The notes below the pieces were generated by a model. It saw only the letters and a list, made by a program, of their open reading frames with translations. It was not told the DNA's origin and ran no database searches. Of a stretch of 11,234 bases of DNA, positions 1 to 11,234 are shown one piece after another (the first letter of the stretch is position 1; every line of letters starts with the position of its first letter). Location: UHGV virus genome UHGV-0140033. One strand, given 5' to 3'. The DNA comes from a virus. A program made the translations under genes and the position numbers.

Positions 1-145
1 TCATCCATATCACCACGTCAAAGGGTGACAGCAGGCTCATAAGACGCCCCAGCGTGGCCAGAGTGCGTTCACTGCGTATTTTCATGAAAGGAGATCACTC
101 AATAACTTCCATCGAGATCGGGTAATAACATTTGAACAGATCGCT

Positions 146-265: not shown

Positions 266-1359
266 ATGCCAACAGTTCCAATTTCTATGAGAAAACTTAA
301 AGAAATTCTTAGGCTTAAATACGGTGTTGGACTCAGCCATCGACAAATTGGTCGTAGTCTTGCAATCTCCCCTTCCGTTGTATCCAGATATGCTAATCGG
401 GCGGCTCAACTTGGCATAAAGCAGTGGCCCTTACCTACAGGATGGGATGATACAAAACTAAAACATGCGTTCCTTCAGACCCAGGTTAAGATGAAGAAGC
501 ACTCTCTGCCTGACTGGGCTACAGTACACCGGGAACTGCGTAATAAATGCGTGACGCTGCAGCTACTCTGGGAAGAATACTGTGAGCGTAATCCAGGCGG
601 TTTTTACAGTTATAACCATTACTGCCGGATGTACCGTGAATGGCTCAAAACCACTTCACCATCAATGCGTCAGGTACATAAAGCTGGCGAAAAACTTTTC
701 GTTGATTACTGTGGACCTACCGTTGGCGTTACCGACCCTGAGACCGGAGAAATAAGAACTGCTCAGGTCATCGTAGCTGTTCTCGGGGCATCAAGTTACA
801 CATGGGCAGAGGCCACCTGGTCTCAGCAGCTTGAAGACTGGGTGATGAGTCATGTTCGCTGCTTCCAGTGGTTGGGTGGCGTTCCTGAACTTGTTGTTCC
901 GGACAATCTGAAAAGCGCCACATCCAGGGCATGTAAGTATGATCCTGACGTTAACCCTACCTACCAGCAGATGCTTGAGCATTATAATGTCGCAGTTTTG
1001 CCTGCGCGGCCACGTAAACCGAAAGATAAAGCCAAAGCTGAAGTTGGCGTTCAGGTTGTTGAACGCTGGATCATGGCCCGAATCAGGCATGAGATCTTCT
1101 ACAGCCTTGCATCGCTTAATCAGCGCATTCGGGAGTTGCTGGAAAGACTGAATAACAAAATAATGCAGAAGTTGGGTTATTCACGTGCAGAACTCTTCAT
1201 CCAGCTTGATAAACCCGCACTGAAGCCTCTTCCTGAAGCCAGTTACAGTTACACCCTGGTGAAGAAAGTCAGAGTTCATGCCGATTACCACGTGGAAATC
1301 GACAAACATTACTACTCGGTTCCATGTTCGCTGTTAGGCCAGCAACTGGAAGCATGGAT
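266..1359 (+). pseudogene. istA: IS21-family transposase IstA, C-terminally truncated by IS629 insertion
   Basis: ATG at 266 with AAAGGA SD. N-terminal HTH region; DDE-type motifs (FVDYCGPT, VVPDNLKS, KPKDKAKAE); HYNV..PARPRKPKDKAKAE resembles the IS21 IstA HYNF.PRACRPRRARTKGKVE block from memory. The 380-aa track ORF runs on into the IS629 left inverted repeat, so the last ~16 codons are not istA. Confidence 0.75.
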
Positions 1360-1385
1360 TGAACCGCCCCGGAAATCCTGGAGAC
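1360..1385. repeat. IS629-like left terminal inverted repeat
   Basis: tgaaccgccccggaaatcctggagac; reverse complement closely matches 2644-2669. Confidence 0.75.
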
Positions 1386-1413
1386 TAAACTTCCTGAGAA
1401 AGAGGTAAACAGG

Positions 1414-1740
1414 ATGACTAAAAATACTCGTTTTTCCCCCGAAGTCCGTCAGCGGGCGATTCGAATGGTTCTGGAAAGTCAGAGCGAATATGACTCACAA
1501 TGGGCGACAATTTGTTCCATTGCTCCAAAGATTGGCTGTACGCCGGAGACTCTGCGTGTCTGGGTTCGCCAGCATGAGCGGGATACCGGGGGCGGTGATG
1601 GAGGGCTCACCACCGCTGAACGTCAGCGTCTGAAAGAGCTGGAACGTGAAAATCGTGAACTGCGCCGCAGTAACGATATCCTTCGCCAGGCTTCCGCTTA
1701 TTTTGCGAAGGCGGAGTTCGACCGCCTCTGGAAAAAATGA
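1414..1740 (+). CDS. IS3-family transposase OrfA (HTH/leucine-zipper DNA-binding subunit), 108 aa
   Basis: ATG at 1414 with GAGG SD; [19 protein letters not shown]... is typical IS3-family OrfA with a C-terminal coiled-coil ([13 protein letters not shown]); stop overlaps orfB start. Confidence 0.9.
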
Positions 1741-2627
1741 TGCCACTGCTGGATAAGCTGCGTGAGCAGTACGGGGTCGGACCGGTATGCAGCGAACTGC
1801 ATATTGCCCCGTCAACGTATTACCATTGTCAGCAACAGCGACATCATCCGGATAAACGCAGTGCCCGTGCGCAGCACGACGACTGGCTGAAGAGAGAGAT
1901 ACAGCGCGTATACGATGAAAATCATCAGGTGTACGGTGTGCGTAAAGTCTGGCGTCAGTTGTTACGGGAAGGAATCAGGGTGGCCAGATGTACAGTGGCA
2001 CGTCTCATGGCGGTTATGGGACTTGCCGGTGTTCTCCGGGGTAAAAAGGTCCGTACGACCATCAGCCGGAAAGCCGTTGCCGCAGGCGACCGCGTAAACC
2101 GTCAGTTCGTGGCAGAACGACCTGACCAGCTGTGGGTGGCTGATTTTACTTACGTCAGCACATGGCGGGGCTTCGTCTATGTGGCGTTCATCATTGATGT
2201 GTTTGCCGGATACATCGTGGGGTGGCGGGTCTCATCGTCCATGGAAACGACATTCGTGCTGGATGCACTGGAGCAGGCGTTATGGGCCCGTCGACCGTCC
2301 GGCACGGTCCATCACAGTGATAAAGGTTCTCAGTATGTATCGCTGGCCTACACACAGCGGCTTAAGGAAGCCGGATTACTGGCATCAACAGGAAGTACAG
2401 GCGACTCGTATGACAACGCGATGGCGGAGAGCATCAATGGTCTTTACAAAGCGGAGGTAATACACCGTAAGAGCTGGAAAAACCGTGCAGAAGTGGAACT
2501 GGCCACACTCACGTGGGTGGACTGGTATAACAATCGACGATTGCTGGAAAGGCTGGGCCATACTCCTCCGGCAGAAGCAGAAAAAGCTTATTATGCTTCC
2601 ATCGGAAACGATGATCTGGCAGCCTGA
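1737..2627 (+). CDS. IS3-family transposase OrfB (DDE catalytic subunit), 296 aa; probably expressed as an OrfAB fusion by -1 frameshifting
   Basis: DDE motifs including the IS3-family signature [18 protein letters not shown]; A6 run at 1732-1737 in the orfA/orfB overlap (ATGA). Confidence 0.9.
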
Positions 2628-2643
2628 GTTCACAGATAAAACA

Positions 2644-2669
2644 CTCTCCAGGAAACCCGGGGCGGTTCA
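2644..2669. repeat. IS629-like right terminal inverted repeat
   Basis: ctctccaggaaacccggggcggttca; imperfect inverse of 1360-1385. Confidence 0.75.
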
Positions 2670-3096
2670 GATAATCGGCGTGGCAGATGACATATTTTTT
2701 ATCTTTGCTCACCAGTTCGATGATTAACGGAAGTTCATCTGCTTTATGGGCAAGAGCTTTAGCCAGAATTTCTTTGTCGTAATCGAGATTAAAGAACCAG
2801 CCACCGCCATTAAGCAGCCAGTGATTGACGTTTCCACGCTCTGATAAGCCATCAATCATCATTTGCTCATGGTTTCCACGTACAGCTCTGAACCAGGGGA
2901 ATGTGATTAATTCCAGGCATTCGACGTTCTCTGTACCGCGATCGACCAAATCGCCAACCGAGATAAGCAGGTCTTTTTTGGTGTCGAATCCTATCGTCTC
3001 CAGTTTTTTCATCAGGTTCGTGTAGCATCCGTGCAGATCGCCAACTACCCAAATATTTCGGTATTTGCTGCCATCAATTCTTTCGTAATAGCGCAT
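2670..3096 (-). pseudogene. Lambda-type Ser/Thr protein phosphatase (ninI/orf221 homolog), 3' end truncated by IS629 insertion (first ~143 codons remain)
   Basis: [25 protein letters not shown]...GDLVDRG...GNHE metallophosphatase motifs; near-identical to lambda PPase as I recall it up to ...KYVICHADY, where the reading frame enters the IS right end. True start is ATG at 3096, not the track start at 3171. Confidence 0.8.
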
Positions 3097-3280
3097 CTCT
3101 TTCACTCCATCCGCGATGAACCATGAGAACGTCGTTGACGATGGCGTGCATTTTCCCGTCTTTATCATCAACGTATTTTCTGACCGTACCGCGACTACAT
3201 TTCAGTCTGCGTGCTACTTCTGTCTGGTTTCCGTATGCTTCAACGAGCATGTCTGGAATGGTTTTTACTGAGAACGTCAT
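3074..3280 (-). CDS. ninH: NinH-like protein, 68 aa
   Basis: Position between ninG and phosphatase as in lambda; start overlaps ninG stop (ATGA); sequence matches lambda NinH by recollection. Confidence 0.8.
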
Positions 3281-3888
3281 GCGGCCTCACTTCTGCTATT
3301 TCGCAGGTCTTTGAGTTTCTGTTGGTACTCTGCCTTGATCGCCTTGCACTCTTCGACAGTCCAGCGATGGCGGTTATGGTTTGATTCGATTTCGTCTACT
3401 GCTTCCTGCCCGATGCGATTAATCAGTTCGACGCGATACGGAACGAGATTTCCGCTTTTATGCTGGTTGCACACCACGCATTGCTTGTGAATATTGCGTT
3501 CATCAAATCGGAGTTGAGGTGCCGCAGCAGTTGTCCGGTAATGTCCGGCATCCCACTGAGCAGACGTGAGCGTTCCGCACGAGATACATGGTAAGTCGCG
3601 GTCTCTTTCTCTGATGAAGGCGTTTACGGCTTGTTGGGCTTGTTTAATCCAGTAACTGCGGGGCTTTAAGGCGAGTTTTCGAATCTTAAGTTTATCTTTC
3701 TGTTTCTGCTCCTCTCGTCGTCGTTTCTTCTCTGCTGCTTTTTCCGCTTTTTCGCGTTCTTTGCTTCGTCGTTCGAGTGCTATCTTGGTTCCACACTCTG
3801 GAGAGCACCACCACTGATTAGCGAATGCAGGGTGAAACCATTCCCGGCATTCATCGTTTTTACATCGTCTTCGCGCTGGTTTAGCCAT
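3277..3888 (-). CDS. ninG: NinG (Rap-like recombination-associated) protein, 203 aa
   Basis: Cys-rich N-terminus ([10 protein letters not shown]...CSPEC), basic KR-rich linker, C-terminal CISC...CVVCNQHK; length and position match lambda NinG. Confidence 0.85.
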
Positions 3889-4157
3889 TATGGTTCGCTC
3901 CAGTAATTCTCAATTGCAGCAGCCATTCTCTGCATCCACTCTGCCAGCTTTAACGCGGCTTCTCTTTCAGAACCACATTTAGGGAAATCCTTCATTTCCA
4001 TGCTGGCCTTATATGTTCTGAATGCCAGGTCTCCGGTAATAACCAGCTCCTGATCAAGCACAGAGCGTTTATTCCGGTGTTGAACGTAATAGACAGATTC
4101 AGTCCGCATTTCTTCTCTGTCTTTTTTGAAGGAAATAAGCTCAGAGAAATCACTCAT
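3888..4157 (-). CDS. Hypothetical nin-region protein, 89 aa (no lambda counterpart at this position)
   Basis: ATG at 4157 with GAGGAAG SD; stop overlaps ninG start; tightly packed in the operon. No family recognised. Confidence 0.55.
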
Positions 4158-4362
4158 CGTCTTCTTCCTCGTACATTGAGCTATTCGGATCGCTCATCAG
4201 TTCTGCGCAGCAGTGCTCACATACGTGAACTTCCAGCACATGCAGCTTCTGACCGCAGTTAGCGCACGTTAAAGCTCGCTCGACGCTTTCTTGTTCGTAA
4301 CTTCGATTTTGGTCAATCACCTTGTTTTCCTCGCACGATGTCTTAGCCACCGGATATCCCAC
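4150..4362 (-). CDS. ninF: NinF-like zinc-ribbon protein (~58-70 aa; start uncertain, track start is GTG)
   Basis: [34 protein letters not shown] matches lambda NinF by recollection; CxxC...CxxCC motif. No in-frame ATG upstream, so the start may be GTG at 4362 or 4350. Confidence 0.65.
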
Positions 4363-4499
4363 AGGTGAGCCGTGTAGTTGAAGGTTTTTACGTCAGATTC
4401 TTTTGGGATTGGCTTGCGTTTATTTCTGGAGCGTTTCGTTGGAAGGTATTTGCAGTTTTCGCAGATGATGTCGGTGATACTTCGTCGCTGTCGTCTCAT
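4317..4499 (-). CDS. ninE: NinE-like protein, 60 aa
   Basis: [20 protein letters not shown]... matches lambda NinE by recollection; ATG at 4499 overlaps the upstream stop (ATGA). The 90-aa track ORF is an upstream extension. Confidence 0.75.
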
Positions 4500-5023
4500 G
4501 CTGCCCTCCTGACGCCCTGCCCGATCGCCATCAATGCCGCTTTGGATACGGTAGTAAACATCCGTCGAGGACTGATGAACGGTCGCCAAATCAGCAGCAT
4601 GGAGCCTTTGCTGTTTCCCTTCTTCTCCAGCCCTGTCGATGGTTCGATAAAATTAATCCGTCCATCAGTGATAATACGAACTTCGTCAACACTCTCCAGA
4701 GCCTTGCTGAACCATCCGACAGACATATCCTCTGGCACAAGCATCACTACCGTCTGTCGCTGTTGTATGCACTGCTCAGCGGCTTTTTCCACCCACGGCC
4801 TGATATTGCTGTACGGTGGGTTATTCCAGATTGCACCGTGGCTTATCCACTCAGAATTGAGTGCGTCGTCGGCCTCAGTTAGCCAGTGAGCGCACAGAGC
4901 GTTTTTGTCGCTCGCTGCCGAATCCAGCCAGAATCCAAACTCAATATCCAGTGCATCAAAAAGCCAAAGCGGCGTTTGCCAGCAGTCCTTGTCGTGTGCT
5001 GGCGTATTTGATTTGATAGTCAT
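4496..5023 (-). CDS. Phage-type DNA N6-adenine methyltransferase (Dam-like); alternative start ATG at 5050
   Basis: NPPY catalytic motif (WNNPPYSN); phage Dam family. ATG at 5023 overlaps ninB stop (ATGA) and is preceded by AAGGGAAGG; ATG at 5050 is also in frame. Confidence 0.75.
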
Positions 5024-5466
5024 GCAGCCTTCCCTTTTCGTTGTGACCATTCATACTCTCTCCGGGAGTCATCACTCCATCGCACGTTGCGCTCTGAGCC
5101 GAACCAGAACATGATTTCGATAAGCTCAGTCATGTTGGCCTTTCGCATTTTGCTGGTACGCACGCCAAGCATGACAACGCCACCGTCGATACCAGGCGCA
5201 CTTCTTTGCTCCATTTTTTTGGTCTTAAGCCACAGGGCAGTGAACAGATCTTTCCAGTCCTCCGGCGCAAGTCTCTCTCCATGCCAAAGCACCTGACGCG
5301 ATACGTCCTGCAATAACGCCCACATAAGGCGGTTTTGAGGATTGCTCCGCTTTGGTTCTTTAATGTGGACTTCGTGAGGTGACTTGTCGTCGATCGGAAG
5401 TGAGAGTATTGCGTCTATGGCGTTGTTTCTGATTGCTTCGTTGCGAAGCATGTATATTTGCTTCAT
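5020..5466 (-). CDS. ninB: NinB (Orf-family recombination mediator), ~148 aa
   Basis: DVSRQV.WHG...W...FTA...WSD..R.EYEW...G.AA conserved blocks shared with lambda NinB; ATG at 5466 with GAGGTG SD (track start at 5472 is GTG). Confidence 0.85.
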   Translation of the reverse strand: MKQIYMLRNEAIRNNAIDAILSLPIDDKSPHEVHIKEPKRSNPQNRLMWALLQDVSRQVLWHGERLAPEDWKDLFTALWLKTKKMEQRSAPGIDGGVVMLGVRTSKMRKANMTELIEIMFWFGSERNVRWSDDSRREYEWSQRKGKAA

Positions 5467-5473
5467 TGTCACC

Positions 5474-5680
5474 TCAACTCACAAAACGCCACGCCATTTT
5501 TGCTACAGCGACAGGCGCAACACCGATAATCACCCACAGGAGAATGCTACCGAAAAGCACACCCACCAGGTCTTTACCTTCGCCTACCAACCGGACAAAA
5601 CAGCCAGCAACCACAATGAACGTCGCCACCATCCACAGAGCACCGAGAAGCCTCAATGCAGAGAAAATCAACTCAACCAC
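5474..5680 (-). CDS. Small hydrophobic protein (68 aa, 2 predicted TM helices) in the ren/ninA slot between replication genes and ninB
   Basis: GTG start preceded by GGGGGAGAG SD; stop 2 nt before ninB start. Composition is strongly hydrophobic, so chance ORF is not excluded. Confidence 0.4.
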   Translation of the reverse strand: MVELIFSALRLLGALWMVATFIVVAGCFVRLVGEGKDLVGVLFGSILLWVIIGVAPVAVAKMAWRFVS

Positions 5681-5695
5681 GATTTACTCTCCCCC

Positions 5696-5727
5696 AAATA
5701 AAAAGGCCTGCGATTACCAGCAGGCCT
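5696..5727 (-). terminator. Intrinsic terminator on the minus strand (tR2-like position, between helicase gene and nin region)
   Basis: Perfect 8-bp GC-rich stem (5704-5711 aggcctgc / 5720-5727 gcaggcct), 8-nt loop, followed on the minus strand by TTTTATTT. Confidence 0.55.
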
Positions 5728-5752
5728 GTTACAAGCTCAGTGATGTAGATGG

Positions 5753-7129
5753 TCATACGTCCGCCCCTTGTGCATATCGTCTGCCACGCGCAGCAGGCGC
5801 ATTTGATGCTGTGCAAATCTGTCTGGCTTCATCCTGGTCACATGCAACAAAGTGTCCGTTACAGAATCGCTGGTAAACCGTACCAAGCGAGCCAAAACGG
5901 TTTTTCGTCACGATGATTTCAGCAAATGGCGCGGCGCTACTGTTCTCGTCATATACCGCTTCCCGATAGAGCATGATGATTGAGTCTGCGTCCTGTTCAA
6001 TGCTTCCTGAATCACGCAAATCTGCGTTTGTCGGGCGTTTGTTTGGTCGCTTCTCAACATCGCGCGAAAGCTGACTCAGGGAGATAACAGGCGTTTTTAG
6101 GTCTTTCGCCATCGCCTTCAGGCTTCCGGAGATGTGAGCAATTGCAAGGTCGTTGCGGTCTGCTTTCGGCTTCTCAATCAGGCCAAGATAATCCGCCATG
6201 ATGAGTGACAGGTTTGGGTTTTCCTGTTTGTGCCGTTCTGCGATTGAGCGTATTTCTTCGACCGATAACCGCGAGGCATCGACTACCCATACATCCAAAT
6301 CTGCAAGCTGACTCATGCCGTTAGCAACACGTGCCCAGCCCTCGTCATCCATCGATGCAGGATTTCGCAGCACGCTAACCGACATCCTCCCGGCGTTGGC
6401 AATACTTCGCTCTGCAATCTGCAATGCGCTCATTTCCATTGAGAAAATCAATACTCCGCGCCGGACGTCAGAACCAGGAATAACGCGGCTTGCAACGCCT
6501 TCGGCAATCTTCAGCGCCAGTTCGGTTTTCCCCATACCAGGACGAGCAGCGATTATCACCAGGTCTTCCGCGTTCATCCCTCCGGTGATGGCATCAAGTT
6601 CTTCGATTCCGGTCTTCAGGGTATCGGACTCTTCTCCGTTCCTCAGACGCCTGTCAAGCGTGTCAGTGTAGTCAGTAATGATTTCCCCTAACCGTACAGG
6701 TTTTACCTCGTCACGGGGCTTTCTGATGGCTGAAAGACGCTTTACAAGTTCATCCATCGCCTGACTCGATGCGTCGATGGTTCCGCTCTGAATTGGTTCA
6801 CGCATTTCATCCATGATTTCCAGCACCAGACGGCGGTGATAGTTATCCGCGACCATTCCGGCATATCCCTTCAGGTTTGCGGCACTCGGGCAGTTTTTGC
6901 TGGTCATCAGGATTGACGTGAAATGCTCCTCTCCGCACGCCTCGGCAACCATCAGCGCGTCGATTAGGTTTCTGTTTCTCGCCTGCTTGCGGATAACCTC
7001 GAAGGCTTTCCGGTAGAGCGGAATTGAAAACGCTTCCGGCTCAAGCGTTGCCAGAACGTCACTGGCAGTTGGTGTTAATCCACCAATCAGCAGACCGCCG
7101 ATAACGCTCGCTTCGATATCCTGTCTCAT
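5753..7129 (-). CDS. Replicative DNA helicase, DnaB family (P22 gene 12-like), 458 aa
   Basis: DnaB N-terminal domain; Walker [17 protein letters not shown]; RecA-like C-terminal domain; start overlaps upstream stop (ATGA). Confidence 0.9.
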
Positions 7130-7947
7130 GCAATCCCCCTGTCTGCAAACTTCCCTTCACGAACTCCCGTTAACGAATCTTCTCTCAGCAGGTAATCAAA
7201 ATCGGCCGTCCAGCCCGTGTCGTTGTCTCCGAAGTAAAACGGCTTGGCCTGATGCACAAACGCCCTGACATACGCTCTGAAACCGTCCACGTTTGGCGTT
7301 TTCAGTTGCGGGATGATTTTCTTCAGGCGGCGTTTGCGTTTCTCGTTGACCGCAACAGCGTGTGGAAGTCTGTCACCGACTTCGGTGTTGTAGGCGTTCA
7401 GGAAGGATTCGTAGTCGATTCGTTCTGCCTTGCGACGTTCAGGTTTAACCTGCCCATCGCCGCCCCCGTTAGGGGGTAAGGGGGTATTTGTATTTATTGT
7501 CTTTTGTATATTGTCTTTTGTGTTTAGCTGACTTGGCTTATACCCATTAGCCGACTTGGCTAATGTTTTATTAGCTGTTTTGGCTAATGTTAAGCTGTCC
7601 TGGCTAATCCACTGCGAAACCACCTTGTTCACTCCGATTTTCACGCCATCAGCAATGAGGAATTTACGCTCAATAAGCTGGCGCTTGGCAGCGCAAACAT
7701 GAGTGTGATGAATACCTGTCATGGCTGCTATCTGCGTGTTTGTGAGTCGATCCATCGGCTTATTGAATCCGTATGTCTTGCGCATGATAGCGAGCATCAC
7801 CTTCAACTGCCGGACGGTTAAATCAGCCATCAGCAGACTGTCGGTAATCTCGTTAGCAACGCGCATGAAACCATCTTCGGTGTCTGCCACGCGATGCTCC
7901 ACGACCTCCAGTTGAGGCCTGTAATCAGCTAACTTAACGACGCCCAT
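7126..7947 (-). CDS. O: Replication initiation protein O (lambda O N-terminal domain / P22 gene 18-like), 273 aa; contains the origin
   Basis: ADLT.RQ.KV.LAI.RKTYG.NKPMDR motif shared with lambda O N-terminus; strong AGGAG SD; iterons lie inside the coding sequence as in lambdoid O genes. Confidence 0.85.
7484..7522. other. AT-rich DNA-unwinding region of ori, adjacent to the iterons
   Basis: gtatttgtatttattgtcttttgtatattgtcttttgtg with tandem attgtcttttgt repeats, flanked by a G-rich palindrome cccccgttaggggg (7465-7478). Confidence 0.65.
7524..7607. repeat. Phage replication origin iterons: four ~17-bp repeats (TTAGCTGACTTGGCTTA / TTAGCCGACTTGGCTAA / TTAGCTGTTTTGGCTAA / TAAGCTGTCCTGGCTAA) at 20-24 bp spacing
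   Basis: Read directly from sequence; each has internal dyad symmetry (TTAGC...GCTAA); located mid-gene in O. Confidence 0.8.
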
Positions 7948-8095
7948 GTTTCACTCCTGCTTTGGCTAGTCTGTAAACACCAACAAGGCGCTCTGCGAAC
8001 GCCCTGTTATTTGCTGCGGCTACCACTAATCCCTCAGGTGAATCAGGGTGTCGAATCTCTTCTTTTTCCTGGTATTTCTTACGACGTTTTGTCAT
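7934..8095 (-). CDS. Small basic hypothetical protein (53 aa) between cII and O
   Basis: ATG at 8095 with AGGAG SD; track start at 8140 is TTG. Lys/Arg-rich N-terminus. No family recognised. Confidence 0.4.
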   Translation of the reverse strand: MTKRRKKYQEKEEIRHPDSPEGLVVAAANNRAFAERLVGVYRLAKAGVKHGRR

Positions 8096-8129
8096 AATTA
8101 CTCCTGTGGATTGATCCAGTCTTTCTACA

Positions 8130-8408
8130 TCAGGCCTCAAAACTGTTGCAGCAGTCTTGAGGCTTTTCTTTTGTCAGCACCATGGCTACTTTCTTTGCCA
8201 GCTCTGCTAATTCCTCGTCTTCAACACCCCACTCCAGCACAGCCAGAAGCATGGCCATCTTTGGGATAAAGCTGTCTTTCCATCGCGAAATTTGCGATTC
8301 ATTAATCCCTAATGCATCAGCAACCTTTCGCTGACCACGTACAGCAATTCGATTCAGGATGTTGCTTGTAATTGCATTCGCTTTCTTGCGAGTACTTGTA
8401 AGTTGCAT
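8130..8408 (-). CDS. cII: CII-like transcriptional activator, 92 aa
   Basis: SQISRWK..FIPK.AMLLAVLEWGV matches the lambda CII core; upstream AAGGAAATACTTACATATG is identical to the lambda cII translation-initiation region as I recall it. The 121-aa track ORF is an upstream extension. Confidence 0.85.
   Translation of the reverse strand: MQLTSTRKKANAITSNILNRIAVRGQRKVADALGINESQISRWKDSFIPKMAMLLAVLEWGVEDEELAELAKKVAMVLTKEKPQDCCNSFEA
8386..8399 (+). promoter_or_regulatory. Candidate CII-binding site / pRE -35 region (TTGC-N6-TTGT)
   Basis: TTGCgagtacTTGT within the first cII codons on the opposite strand, resembling the lambda TTGC-N6-TTGC CII site; imperfect second half-site. Confidence 0.3.
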
Positions 8409-8465
8409 ATGTAAGTATTTCCTTAACAAATAAGAAGTTATGCGCATCAAATTATGCGCGTTGTA

Positions 8466-8510
8466 TTCCCGCATTTCGGCGGGAATGATGACCATGACTG
8501 TTAAAGAGCG
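8466..8510 (-). promoter_or_regulatory. nutR-like antitermination site: boxA (CGCTCTTTA, 8510-8502) and boxB hairpin (8485-8466)
   Basis: Minus strand reads CGCTCTTTAACAG immediately after the cro stop, then 13 nt, then a 7-bp stem TTCCCGC/GCGGGAA with purine-rich loop CGAAAT; same arrangement as lambda nutR. Confidence 0.55.
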
Positions 8511-8516
8511 GTGTTA

Positions 8517-8711
8517 CTATTTGTTTTTCTTGTTGCTTGGGAAAGGACGAACTTCCTCTCCAATCACACTGCCATCAGGCTTTACCGTAACCATGATGTT
8601 ACGGCCTGCCAGAATGGCCTTGCTGATAGCGCACTGGATTACACCAAAGTCACTGGCTGCTTTAGCCTGTCCATGGATTTTGGCGTAATCGGCAAGTGTC
8701 ATTCGAATCAT
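8517..8711 (-). CDS. cro: Cro-like repressor, 64 aa
   Basis: [15 protein letters not shown]...AGR.I...DGSV..EEV.PFPSNKK aligns with lambda Cro (about half identical by eye); ATG at 8711 with GGAG SD. The track start at 8717 is GTG. Confidence 0.85.
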
Positions 8712-8741
8712 ATGCACTCTCCGTTATTAACCATGAACAAA

Positions 8742-8806
8742 GAATACTACAGGTATTCAAAGCAATCAATACTCAGGGTATTTTTAGTTTAAGTACCTTA
8801 GCTATT
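8742..8806. promoter_or_regulatory. OR operator region: three operator sites (AATAC-N5-GTATT at 8743-8757 and 8768-8782; degenerate AGTAC-N5-CTATT at 8792-8806), containing the divergent pR/pRM promoters
   Basis: Palindromes read directly; centre-to-centre spacing 24-25 bp as in lambda OR1-3. Possible pR -10 TAGTAT (minus, 8749-8744) and pRM -10 TAGAAT (8806-8811). Confidence 0.7.
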
Positions 8807-8817
8807 AGAATTAAGCT

Positions 8818-9502
8818 ATGGAAAATAAAAAATCACTGACGACAGAACAGCTCGAAGACGCTAAGCGGCTTAAGGCTTTGTATGAGTCAAAAAAGAAAGA
8901 ATTGGGAATAACCCAATACTCAATCGCTGATGAACTGGGTATCACCCAAGGAGCGGTAGGGCATTATCTTAATGGCAGAAACGCGTTTGTTGCAAGTCTC
9001 AATTGCTGATTTTTGCCAGTCAATTGCTGCCAAGGTTGCAGAACAGGCAGAAAGCCTTAAGAGCGATGCCAACGTAAGGTATGCAGGGGAATACAGAGCA
9101 GGAAAGAGGTATCCGGTGTTAAGCAGTATCCAGGCTGGCTCGTGGTGTGAAGCATGCGAACCATACACCATTAAAGACATAGATGTTTGGCTTGAGTCTG
9201 ACGCGCATATTCAAGGTAATGCGTTCTGGCTTAAAGTGGAAGGTGATTCAATGACGGCACCGGTTGGGTTAAGCATTCCAGAGGGAACATTCGTTCTTTT
9301 CGATACCGGAAGGGAGGCGATCAACGGCAGCTTGGTCATAGCAAAACTTTCTGACTCTAACGAAGCAACATTCAAGAAGCTGATAATCGACGGCGGAAAT
9401 AAATACCTCAAGGGACTTAATCCTGCATGGCCTCTCGTGCCAATCAATGGAAACTGCAAGATTATAGGCGTTGCAATTGAGACAAAACTAAGGCTGGTTT
9501 GA
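8818..9502 (+). pseudogene. cI: cI-type repressor disrupted by a +1 frameshift: N-terminal HTH domain 8818-9009, C-terminal S24 LexA-like peptidase domain continues in another frame to 9502
   Basis: N-terminal [33 protein letters not shown] resembles the lambda cI N-terminus; C-terminal frame has AG..WLKVEGDSMTAP...ATFKKL S24 motifs. Frame changes between 8960 and 9009, most simply at the TTT run 8986-8988. Confidence 0.75.
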
Positions 9503-9519
9503 TCACGCAAGGGGCGATT

Positions 9520-9888
9520 ATGGTTGGAACCGCTATAGCAAGCTTTTTTGGGATGTTGGCAATCTCGACAATTTACGGCTTAGCGCATGCTTTTATTGCG
9601 AAATCTCTATCAGAAAAAATAAGCCAGGCTTGGGCGCATAGATCAGCTCGTTTCATGATTCTGGTGATCATAGCAATACAAGGGATATCTGCATTTATCC
9701 TCTATGGATCAAGCTTATACCTATTGTATCAAGGCGCGACATTTACGCCTTACACCAGTGATTACGGAACTCTATACGATGGTAGTGAAGACATCACTGT
9801 GGCTTGGATCGTCTTTGGTTTATCTATGGCCGTGTCTGTTGTAGCAGACATCATTAAGGTAATTCTCGTCTTAACCTTCGCTGACTAA
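9520..9888 (+). CDS. Uncharacterised integral membrane protein (122 aa, ~3 TM helices) cotranscribed downstream of cI in the rex slot
   Basis: ATG at 9520, 17 nt after the cI stop, with G-rich SD (track start 9499 is TTG); three long hydrophobic segments; no similarity to lambda RexB recognised. Confidence 0.65.
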   Translation: MVGTAIASFFGMLAISTIYGLAHAFIAKSLSEKISQAWAHRSARFMILVIIAIQGISAFILYGSSLYLLYQGATFTPYTSDYGTLYDGSEDITVAWIVFGLSMAVSVVADIIKVILVLTFAD

Positions 9889-9942
9889 CCTATAATCCCG
9901 GCAGCAATAGCTATCGGGATCCACTTCACATATCCCGCATAA

Positions 9943-10143
9943 AAAGCACTGAACAAGCAGACACCGAAACAAATAGAAGTCATGCGCTGTCTGGCGCAAG
10001 GCATGCCGAACAAAATGATCGCCTACAAAATGGGCATCAGCACATCAACCGTCAAAGTCCATCTGAACCGTATTTACATGCGTTTGAACATCACCAACCG
10101 ATTGCAGGCGTTGTTGTGGCTGAACGAACACAACATGTTCTGA
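9943..10143 (+). pseudogene. 3' fragment of a LuxR/NarL(FixJ)-family response regulator gene: C-terminal HTH domain only
   Basis: LNKQTPKQIEVMRCLAQGMPNKMIAYKMGISTSTVKVHLNRIYMRLNITNRLQALLW has the LuxR-type HTH signature and resembles the NarL C-terminus. In-frame TAA at 9940-9942 sits where the receiver domain should be. Confidence 0.55.
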
Positions 10144-10346
10144 CGCGTTTCGAAAAACCGTTCGACGTCGAATGGCTGTTCGATTCAGCCGTCGCGGACG
10201 AAGCGGAACAATACGTTTTCCACCCGAAACAAACATTGCGCAGAAATCCGGACGGATCGCTGACCGTCAAATTCCGCGCGGGCGGACGGCTGGAAATGGA
10301 TTGGCATCTGTACACTTGGGGAAAGCACGTCAAAGTCGTCAAAGCG
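10143..10346 (+). other. Possible gene fragment resembling the C-terminal (WCX-like) region of a WYL-domain transcriptional regulator; no start and no stop of its own
   Basis: Frame translation ...FHPKQTLRRNPDGSLTVKFRAGGRLEMDWHLYTWGKHVKVV resembles WYL-regulator C-termini (HP.Q...DGS...EL.W.L.WG..V.V). It runs directly into the antisense of rho. Confidence 0.25.
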
Positions 10347-11234
10347 TTACGAATTCATCGCTTCGAAAAAGTCGTGATTGTTTTTCGACTGTTTCAGCTT
10401 TTCCATCAGGAACTCCATCGCGTCGGCGGGTCCCATCGGCATCAGCACGCGGCGCAACACCCACATTTTAGGCAAAGTATTTTTATCCACCAACAATTCC
10501 TCATTACGCGTACCCGATTTTGTAATGTCGATAGCGGGGAAAATACGTTTATCAGAAACTTTGCGATCCAAAATAATTTCGCTGTTGCCTGTGCCTTTGA
10601 ACTCTTCGAAAATCACTTCGTCCATTCGAGAGCCCGTTTCAACCAAAGCCGTTGCGATAATTGTCAGCGAACCGCCCTCCTCTACATTACGAGCAGCACC
10701 AAAAAAGCGTTTAGGCTTTTGCAGAGCGTTGGCATCCACACCACCTGTTAACACTTTACCCGATGAAGGAATAACGGTGTTATAAGCACGAGCTAAACGC
10801 GTAATACTGTCCAGCAAAATCACAACGTCTTGCTTGTGTTCGACAAGGCGCTTAGCCTTTTCAATCACCATTTCAGCGACTTGAATATGGCGGCTTGCGG
10901 GCTCGTCAAACGTTGAAGAGATAACCTCACCTTGAATCGAGCGTTTCATATCCGTCACTTCCTCGGGGCGCTCATCAATCAACAAAACAATCAAGTGAAT
11001 CTCTGGGTGATTAGCTGTAATCGCGTGAGCGATGTTTTTCATCATGACGGTTTTACCTGTTCGTGGAGGCGCAACAATCATTCCGCGTTGACCTTTACCT
11101 TGCGGGCAAATCAAATCGATAATGCGGTCGGTTAAATCTTTGCCTTTTTCACCGCTTGGCAGCTCGTAATCCATCTTCAGCTTTTCATCTGGATACGTTG
11201 GCGTTAAGTTATCAAAGTTGACCCGATAGCGCAA
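10347..11234 (-). CDS. rho: Transcription termination factor Rho, C-terminal ~295 codons (5' end beyond the window)
   Basis: Walker [34 protein letters not shown], RecA-like ATPase domain ending ...[13 protein letters not shown] at 10347-10349. Clearly divergent from E. coli Rho as I recall it (roughly three-quarters identical by eye). Confidence 0.9.

Follow-up and report, generated by a model that had tools for sequence, protein, structure and literature searches.

Why does the cI repressor gene of the virus genome UHGV-0140033 read in two different frames? The window, meaning the whole 11,234-nt stretch of DNA that we analysed, includes a fragment of an Escherichia coli HK620-type lambdoid phage, and it carries the DNA-binding and peptidase parts of a lambda-type repressor in two overlapping open reading frames (ORFs). 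Such an arrangement could reflect a mutation, an error in the sequence or a repressor encoded by two genes. We conclude, with a probability of about 85%, that the locus is a null allele of an HK620-immunity-type cI, which arose through one illegitimate 32-bp deletion at a 2-bp CG microhomology in an E2863-like parent.

A reading made from the letters of the sequence alone (the sequence-only reading) had described a cI repressor with its helix-turn-helix and RecA-cleavable S24 parts in different frames. Its ORFs, their coordinates and the +1 frame from about 8960 are all correct, and Pfam matches and homolog alignments support the identification, the immunity type being that of HK620. Relative to the first ORF, the +1 frame is open from 8960, directly after a TAG at 8957-8959. 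The first ORF matched HTH_3 (Pfam, E = 6e-6) over profile positions 5-34 of 55 only, whereas intact HK620 cI covers positions 6-55 of 55. The second ORF matched Peptidase_S24 over the complete profile (E = 2.5e-24; positions 1-116 of 116) and contains the helix 5 region, the linker with its Ala-Gly cleavage site and the S24 peptidase domain. The QAGSW (QA/GSW), GDSMT and TFKKL motifs of intact cI were all found in the +1-frame translation, and the Ala117-Gly118 site, Ser155 and Lys198 are kept, aligning to A111-G112, S149 and K192 of lambda. There are no further nonsense mutations within this S24 remnant, and the ATG at 8972 is a fortuitous in-frame start.

We placed the lesion by a three-way DNA alignment of the window, HK620 and the prophage of E. 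coli E2863. Alignment against intact cI homologs was the check that the sequence-only reading had proposed for locating its suspected one-nucleotide change, and it revealed a single 32-column gap between window positions 8985 and 8986, together with one private substitution. In the E2863-type allele the deleted bases are CTAAACGTTGAGGTCGCATCTGGTTTTGCACG, which span the codons from L57 through A66 plus the first two bases of R67. The CG at 8984-8985 recurs at the end of the deleted block, which gives a microhomology of 2 bp. Every base of the TTT at 8986-8988 is accounted for by native sequence: T 8986 closes the native CGT codon (Arg67), and the remaining two open TTG (Leu68). We regard it as very probable that the frame split was caused by a real 32-bp deletion.

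A 741-bp query (window 8780-9520) found matches in 146 of the complete E. coli genomes searched and in 16 phage records, among them HK620, mEpX2, HK140, HK630 and HF4s. Apart from the deletion, the listed E. coli genomes and 13 of these phage records were 99.6-99.9% identical to the query, and the remaining three phage records 99.1-99.5%. Because this region is 99.6-99.9% identical to intact cI, the split-frame pattern is not a chance arrangement. Each listed match consisted of two pieces spanning 773 bp of the subject against the 741 bp of the query (774 in two Stx2c phage records), the exception being one phage record that ends 6 bases before the query does. The full-length cI homologs seen have 238 aa. 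The annotation of HK620 (AF335538) gives a cI of 717 nt and 238 aa that diverges from cro, with OR3-OR2-OR1 between the two, and has hkaS, tIMM and OL/pL downstream; 238 aa is also the length of 12 of the 15 listed members of the 90% protein cluster of HK620 cI (310 members in all). We rejected a repressor naturally encoded by two genes, an arrangement that the sequence-only reading had recognized would undo its own explanation, because the 32 additional bp are present in all listed E. coli and phage matches and, wherever these are annotated, cI is a single gene; no two-gene homologs were found among them. Programmed ribosomal frameshifting was likewise rejected, since the homologs are single-frame and the frame change coincides exactly with a 32-bp deletion unique to the window lineage. 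Separately, a 2,653-bp Logan contig outside the window (P0002) carries its own frameshift allele of the same cI, in which a 96-aa product diverges after L57. That lesion is consistent with the loss of one nucleotide in the AAA of CTAAAC of an HK620-type allele; it could be either a sequencing error or a further natural knockout at nearly the same position.

Compared with the lambda-type cI/LexA-like S24 repressor family, the window has an orthologous locus, with a divergent cro and a tripartite operator in between, and its S24 domain has the Ser/Lys dyad and the Ala-Gly site, although in a separate +1-frame ORF. A complete five-helix HTH_3 domain is missing, and the two domains are found on two overlapping ORFs rather than on one polypeptide. 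Because the domains lie in different frames, the locus is a pseudogene of this family and not a functional member. It is best filed as an orthologous but inactivated HK620/E2863-type cI.

The deletion shifts the frame, so that translation from the normal start would yield 56 native residues followed by FVASLNC. The helix ranges used for its structure are those of lambda cI, with helix 4 at roughly 61-69. Intact cI aligned with lambda cI (PDB 3BDN) at E = 1e-51 over residues 3-232, and because the N-terminal domain aligned without gaps, residue numbers counted from Met1 equal the lambda mature numbering. Helices were assigned from this gapless alignment to solved lambda cI structures and from a paper on the truncated lambda N-terminal domain (PMC6070647); a single-sequence AlphaFold model of intact cI (P0005), made for helix boundaries, had a mean predicted local distance difference test score of 33.5 and was discarded as unusable. 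The 63-aa peptide would keep the residues aligned with lambda helices 1-3 and would lack the equivalents of helices 4 and 5 as well as the linker and the C-terminal domain for dimerisation and cooperativity. In lambda, the hydrophobic core of the N-terminal domain comprises Y22, L29, L31, V36, F51, L65 and L69, and a 1-45 fragment forms helices and no stable tertiary structure (PMC6070647). Two of these seven core positions, 65 and 69, are missing from the 63-aa peptide, which would be expected neither to fold stably nor to repress pR nor to activate pRM. With both core positions and all dimerisation and cooperativity surfaces lost, meaningful binding to the right operator (OR) appears unlikely. 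The sequence-only reading had suggested that a stand-alone helix-turn-helix domain could still bind OR weakly; given the partial HTH_3 match and the loss of the equivalents of helices 4 and 5, the 63-aa product falls short of a complete DNA-binding domain. The S24 part would be made only through inefficient internal initiation at ATG 8972, where the ribosome-binding context is weak (no good Shine-Dalgarno sequence, the nearest purine-rich run, TAGGG, ending 10 nt before), and, without a DNA-binding domain, it would have no repressor function.

Among the alternatives, the one that survives best is that the deletion is a library-preparation, sequencing or assembly artefact and that the real genome has an intact cI, which we consider unlikely. 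The window is the whole of a European Nucleotide Archive metagenome contig, ERZ1745232 NODE_604, and the coverage given in the contig name is about 5.5. The deleted junction, taken as a 76-bp query, was not matched in one piece by any of 5,426 complete E. coli genomes; all full-coverage matches there came as two pieces spanning 108 bp, and the junction 30-mer was absent from GTDB representative genomes, IMG/VR and JGI metagenomes. The junction was thus found in none of the complete E. coli genomes, phage records and contig collections searched, but it does occur in a second contig (L004; ERZ28624925, RAMP15-1_SAMN03418254 scaffold_977; 7,851 bp), which encodes the exact 63-aa product. L004 matches window positions 2616-10465, and the differences are six single-nucleotide polymorphisms (SNPs) and a 10-N scaffold gap. 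Four of the SNPs were polarised against E. coli references: the derived alleles at 4604 and 7276 are in L004, and those at 6626 and 9014, the latter inside cI, are in the window. Since each contig has derived SNPs of its own, the deletion predates the split between the window and L004, and the two contigs point to slightly diverged but related DNA populations that share it. The same junction was recovered in two assemblies of different form, a SPAdes-style NODE contig and a separate scaffold, and the breakpoint has no repeat of more than 2 bp on which a de Bruijn assembler could go astray. The loss of 32 bp at a microhomology of just 2 bp, shared with a second assembly that has private SNPs, makes a homopolymer or assembler error unlikely; the homopolymer sequencing error that the sequence-only reading had entertained is also the wrong type of error. 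An apparent second inactivating mutation in L004, a split of the DnaB-like helicase gene into 367 and 29 aa (L004 4242-4425, window about 7065-7074), proved to be only the 10-N scaffolding run.

Several points nevertheless weigh against a real null mutation. The source contig has low coverage and is a patchwork in which short microhomologies connect insertion sequence (IS) fragments, phage DNA and stretches of alphaproteobacterial DNA. It has two other unusual joins, the phage/alphaproteobacterial one near 9970 and, inside a WYL gene, one that marks the loss of about 795 bp, and a rearrangement at the template or library level keeps a small share of the probability. The window and L004 assemblies may come from non-independent samples. 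By analogy with lambda, a trapped, derepressed cro-cII-O-P-ori fragment would be expected to be lethal, which fits awkwardly with a replication module that appears intact. The lack of function of the 63-aa peptide and the lack of expression of the S24 remnant are, moreover, read from sequence features. What doubt remains about the mutation being real is due to the low coverage and the unproven independence of the two assemblies.

At the right end of the contig, the exact match to E. coli prophages stops at 9969-9975 (blastn end points and string comparison), before tIMM, OL, pL and N, and positions 9970-11234 are non-E. coli DNA with a GerE fragment, a WCX tail and a rho fragment. The GerE/LuxR piece consists of the last 60 codons, up to 10143, of a stand-alone 65-aa regulator that is truncated at its 5' end. 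Of the WYL regulator only the WCX tail is left, at 10143-10346, with about 795 bp (the first ~240 codons) lost relative to L016 1240-2033; L016 has the native order LysR-GerE-WYL/WCX-rho. The rho piece covers the 3' 295 codons and shares 97% protein identity and 93% DNA identity with the Rho sequences of uncultured-metagenome contigs; related Rho clusters in the same match list (92-94% identical) are labelled as an 'Alphaproteobacteria bacterium' metagenome-assembled genome, and the closest contigs have a core rho-mnmE-rimP-nusA-infB neighbourhood. A 211-aa ORF at 10116-10751 on the plus strand was rejected as a gene, since only its first ~75 residues (the WCX remnant) are real coding sequence and the rest is read-through antisense to rho. 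The phage/GerE join, apparently made through a microhomology of about 10 bp (GACACCGAAA), is common to the window and L004, and its 30-mer had no match in JGI metagenomes or IMG/VR. Either the template is chimeric or the fusion between two classes is genuine.

On the left, positions 1-2669 are a stack of enterobacterial IS fragments, and phage homology starts at about 2670, to the right of an IS629/IS1203-like element. No complete E. coli genome shares this IS/phage junction, and the path through the left-end repeats may be an assembler choice. An O145:H28 prophage that seemed to share the IS3-family insertion (H57) was dismissed, as its IS copies lie elsewhere in the prophage and the insertion is not common to both. 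Both ends of this low-coverage metagenome contig are thus joins to repeats or foreign DNA, and their uncertainty limits what can be said of a decayed prophage. The window bears only in part on the claim of the sequence-only reading that loss of the repressor fits a decayed state: its early right operon is intact, and the joins at its ends may or may not be those of the real genome.

If the contig were nevertheless a natural molecule, it would be a derepressed, lambda-dv-like replicon comprising OR/pR-cro-cII-O(ori)-helicase fused to alphaproteobacterial DNA (GerE, the WYL remnant and rho) and to IS elements. We consider this very unlikely; were it true, DNA of two classes would recently have been fused on a phage replicon without a repressor.

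It is likewise very unlikely that the split is functional, in the sense that one of its products, the detached S24/C-terminal piece or the 63-aa N-terminal peptide, is expressed and acts in trans. As an anti-repressor, the C-terminal piece could poison cI oligomers formed by incoming homoimmune phages; the N-terminal peptide could instead occupy OR weakly. The S24 remnant does keep a start codon, the cleavage site, the catalytic residues and an absence of further nonsense mutations, and the allele has lasted through a slight divergence of two lineages. However, ATG 8972 has no good Shine-Dalgarno sequence before it, pRM would be expected from lambda biology to be shut off with cro intact, and the N-terminal peptide lacks two of its seven core residues. 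The allele is also confined to this sample set, being found in 0 of 5,426 E. coli genomes, which gives no sign of selection, and a missense change (S77C) has already accumulated. The weakest alternative, to which we give practically no weight, is the version of the sequence-only reading, in which the TTT of a cI that is otherwise complete has a one-nucleotide insertion or a miscalled homopolymer: because -32 is equivalent to +1 modulo 3, dropping one T does restore a single frame, as that reading had correctly worked out, but the TTT is wholly native, 32 bases are absent relative to intact alleles, and the repaired 227-aa product would still lack 11 residues (57-67), while full-length homologs have 238 aa and no functional 227-aa cI family was seen.

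Table 1. Coordinates of the cI lesion, its two remnants and the neighbouring features in the window.
Feature	Position	Strand	Description	Basis
Deletion junction	8984..8986	+	32 bp absent; CG 8984-8985 is the 2-bp microhomology; breakpoint ambiguous by 2 nt	Three-way alignment
Private A>T substitution	9014	+	Ser77>Cys (intact numbering); ancestral A in L004 and all references	Alignment, SNP comparison
5' remnant of cI	8818..9009	+	63 codons: 56 native (M1-A56) and 7 out of frame (FVASLNC); TGA 9007-9009	ORF list, alignment to HK620 and E2863 cI, HTH_3 match
3' remnant of cI	8972..9502	+	176 aa, +1 frame; native coding from 8986 (L68 onward)	ORF list, Pfam, motifs, lambda cI alignment
Right operator	8742..8807		OR1 8742-8758, OR2 8767-8783, OR3 8791-8807	Exact string match to HK620 AF335538 annotation
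pR	8734-8769	-		Exact string match to HK620 AF335538 annotation
cro	8517..8711	-	64 aa, intact	PF09048 Cro; HK620 cro coordinates same after offset
cII	8130..8408	-	92 aa, intact	PF05269 Phage_CII
Replication initiator O	7126..7947	-	273 aa	PF04492; 822 nt as in E. coli O145:H28 prophage
DnaB-like replicative helicase	5753..7129	-	458 aa, full length	PF00772, PF03796; 1377 nt as in O145:H28 prophage
hkaS homolog	9520..9888	+	122 aa, downstream of cI	HK620 annotation
IS1 end	about 1-60			
ISEc12 (IS21-like) istA fragment	cut at 1357			
IS629/IS1203-like IS3-family element	about 1358-2669		Removes 3' 245 nt of phage Ser/Thr phosphatase gene	

The right operator, pR and the early genes beside cI are retained (Table 1). 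A sigma-70 consensus scan of positions 8400-10000 returned no promoter-like site and did not recover pR, which was mapped by identity to HK620 instead. The O gene contains four origin-type iteron-like repeats at 7523-7608 (direct-repeat family D1, 4 copies, 20-24 nt spacing), and no N gene is visible in the contig. The helicase may be P22 gp12-like. With cI dead and OR1-3, pR, cro, cII, O with its iterons and the helicase intact, a Cro-dominated, non-immune and SOS-independent state would be expected. In lambda, a derepressed, non-excisable cro-cII-O-P fragment with its ori kills the host by replicative killing (PMC3640518), so an intact replication module beside a dead repressor needs explanation. 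Such a module would be tolerated only if O and helicase expression were low without N, if a co-resident homoimmune prophage supplied cI, or if the DNA were not a trapped chromosomal prophage; a very recent mutation would be a further option.

Together, these results describe a private loss-of-function deletion in a well-known phage repressor, a change that amounts to ordinary prophage decay or a clear-plaque-type mutation. Their value is corrective: the locus should be annotated as a cI pseudogene produced by a 32-bp deletion, neither as two genes nor as a homopolymer error. Two points deserve note, namely the tolerance of an intact pR-cro-O-helicase-ori module that has no repressor, and the reality of the junction between E. 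coli phage and alphaproteobacterial DNA.

The closest known systems are the cI of HK620 (AAK28868, 238 aa) and the almost identical alleles of mEpX2, HK140, HK630 and E. coli prophages (e.g., WP_000428318), whose DNA is 99.6-99.9% identical to the window outside the deletion, and whose start codon, OR1-3, pR, divergent cro and downstream hkaS are the same. The window allele differs in lacking 32 bp (codons 57-67), in being frameshifted and in carrying S77C. Its parent was of the E2863/WP_000428318 type (A66 and CGT for Arg67) and not of the HK620 type (T66 and CGA). Lambda cI (PDB 3BDN and 1LMB) has the same two-domain architecture, with the Ala-Gly cleavage site and the Ser/Lys dyad conserved; its operator specificity, and hence its immunity type, is different, and the window copy is a null allele in which the helix 4 equivalent is lost and the domains are separated.

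The last comparison is with trapped lambda cro-cII-O-P fragments and with lambda-dv plasmids, which are repressor-free and Cro-autoregulated. With its cI dead, the window is left with OR/pR-cro-cII-O(ori)-helicase, the same gene set, although its helicase is DnaB-like and not a loader of the lambda P type. In lambda, this set leads to replicative killing if it is trapped in the chromosome and to plasmid maintenance if it is free.
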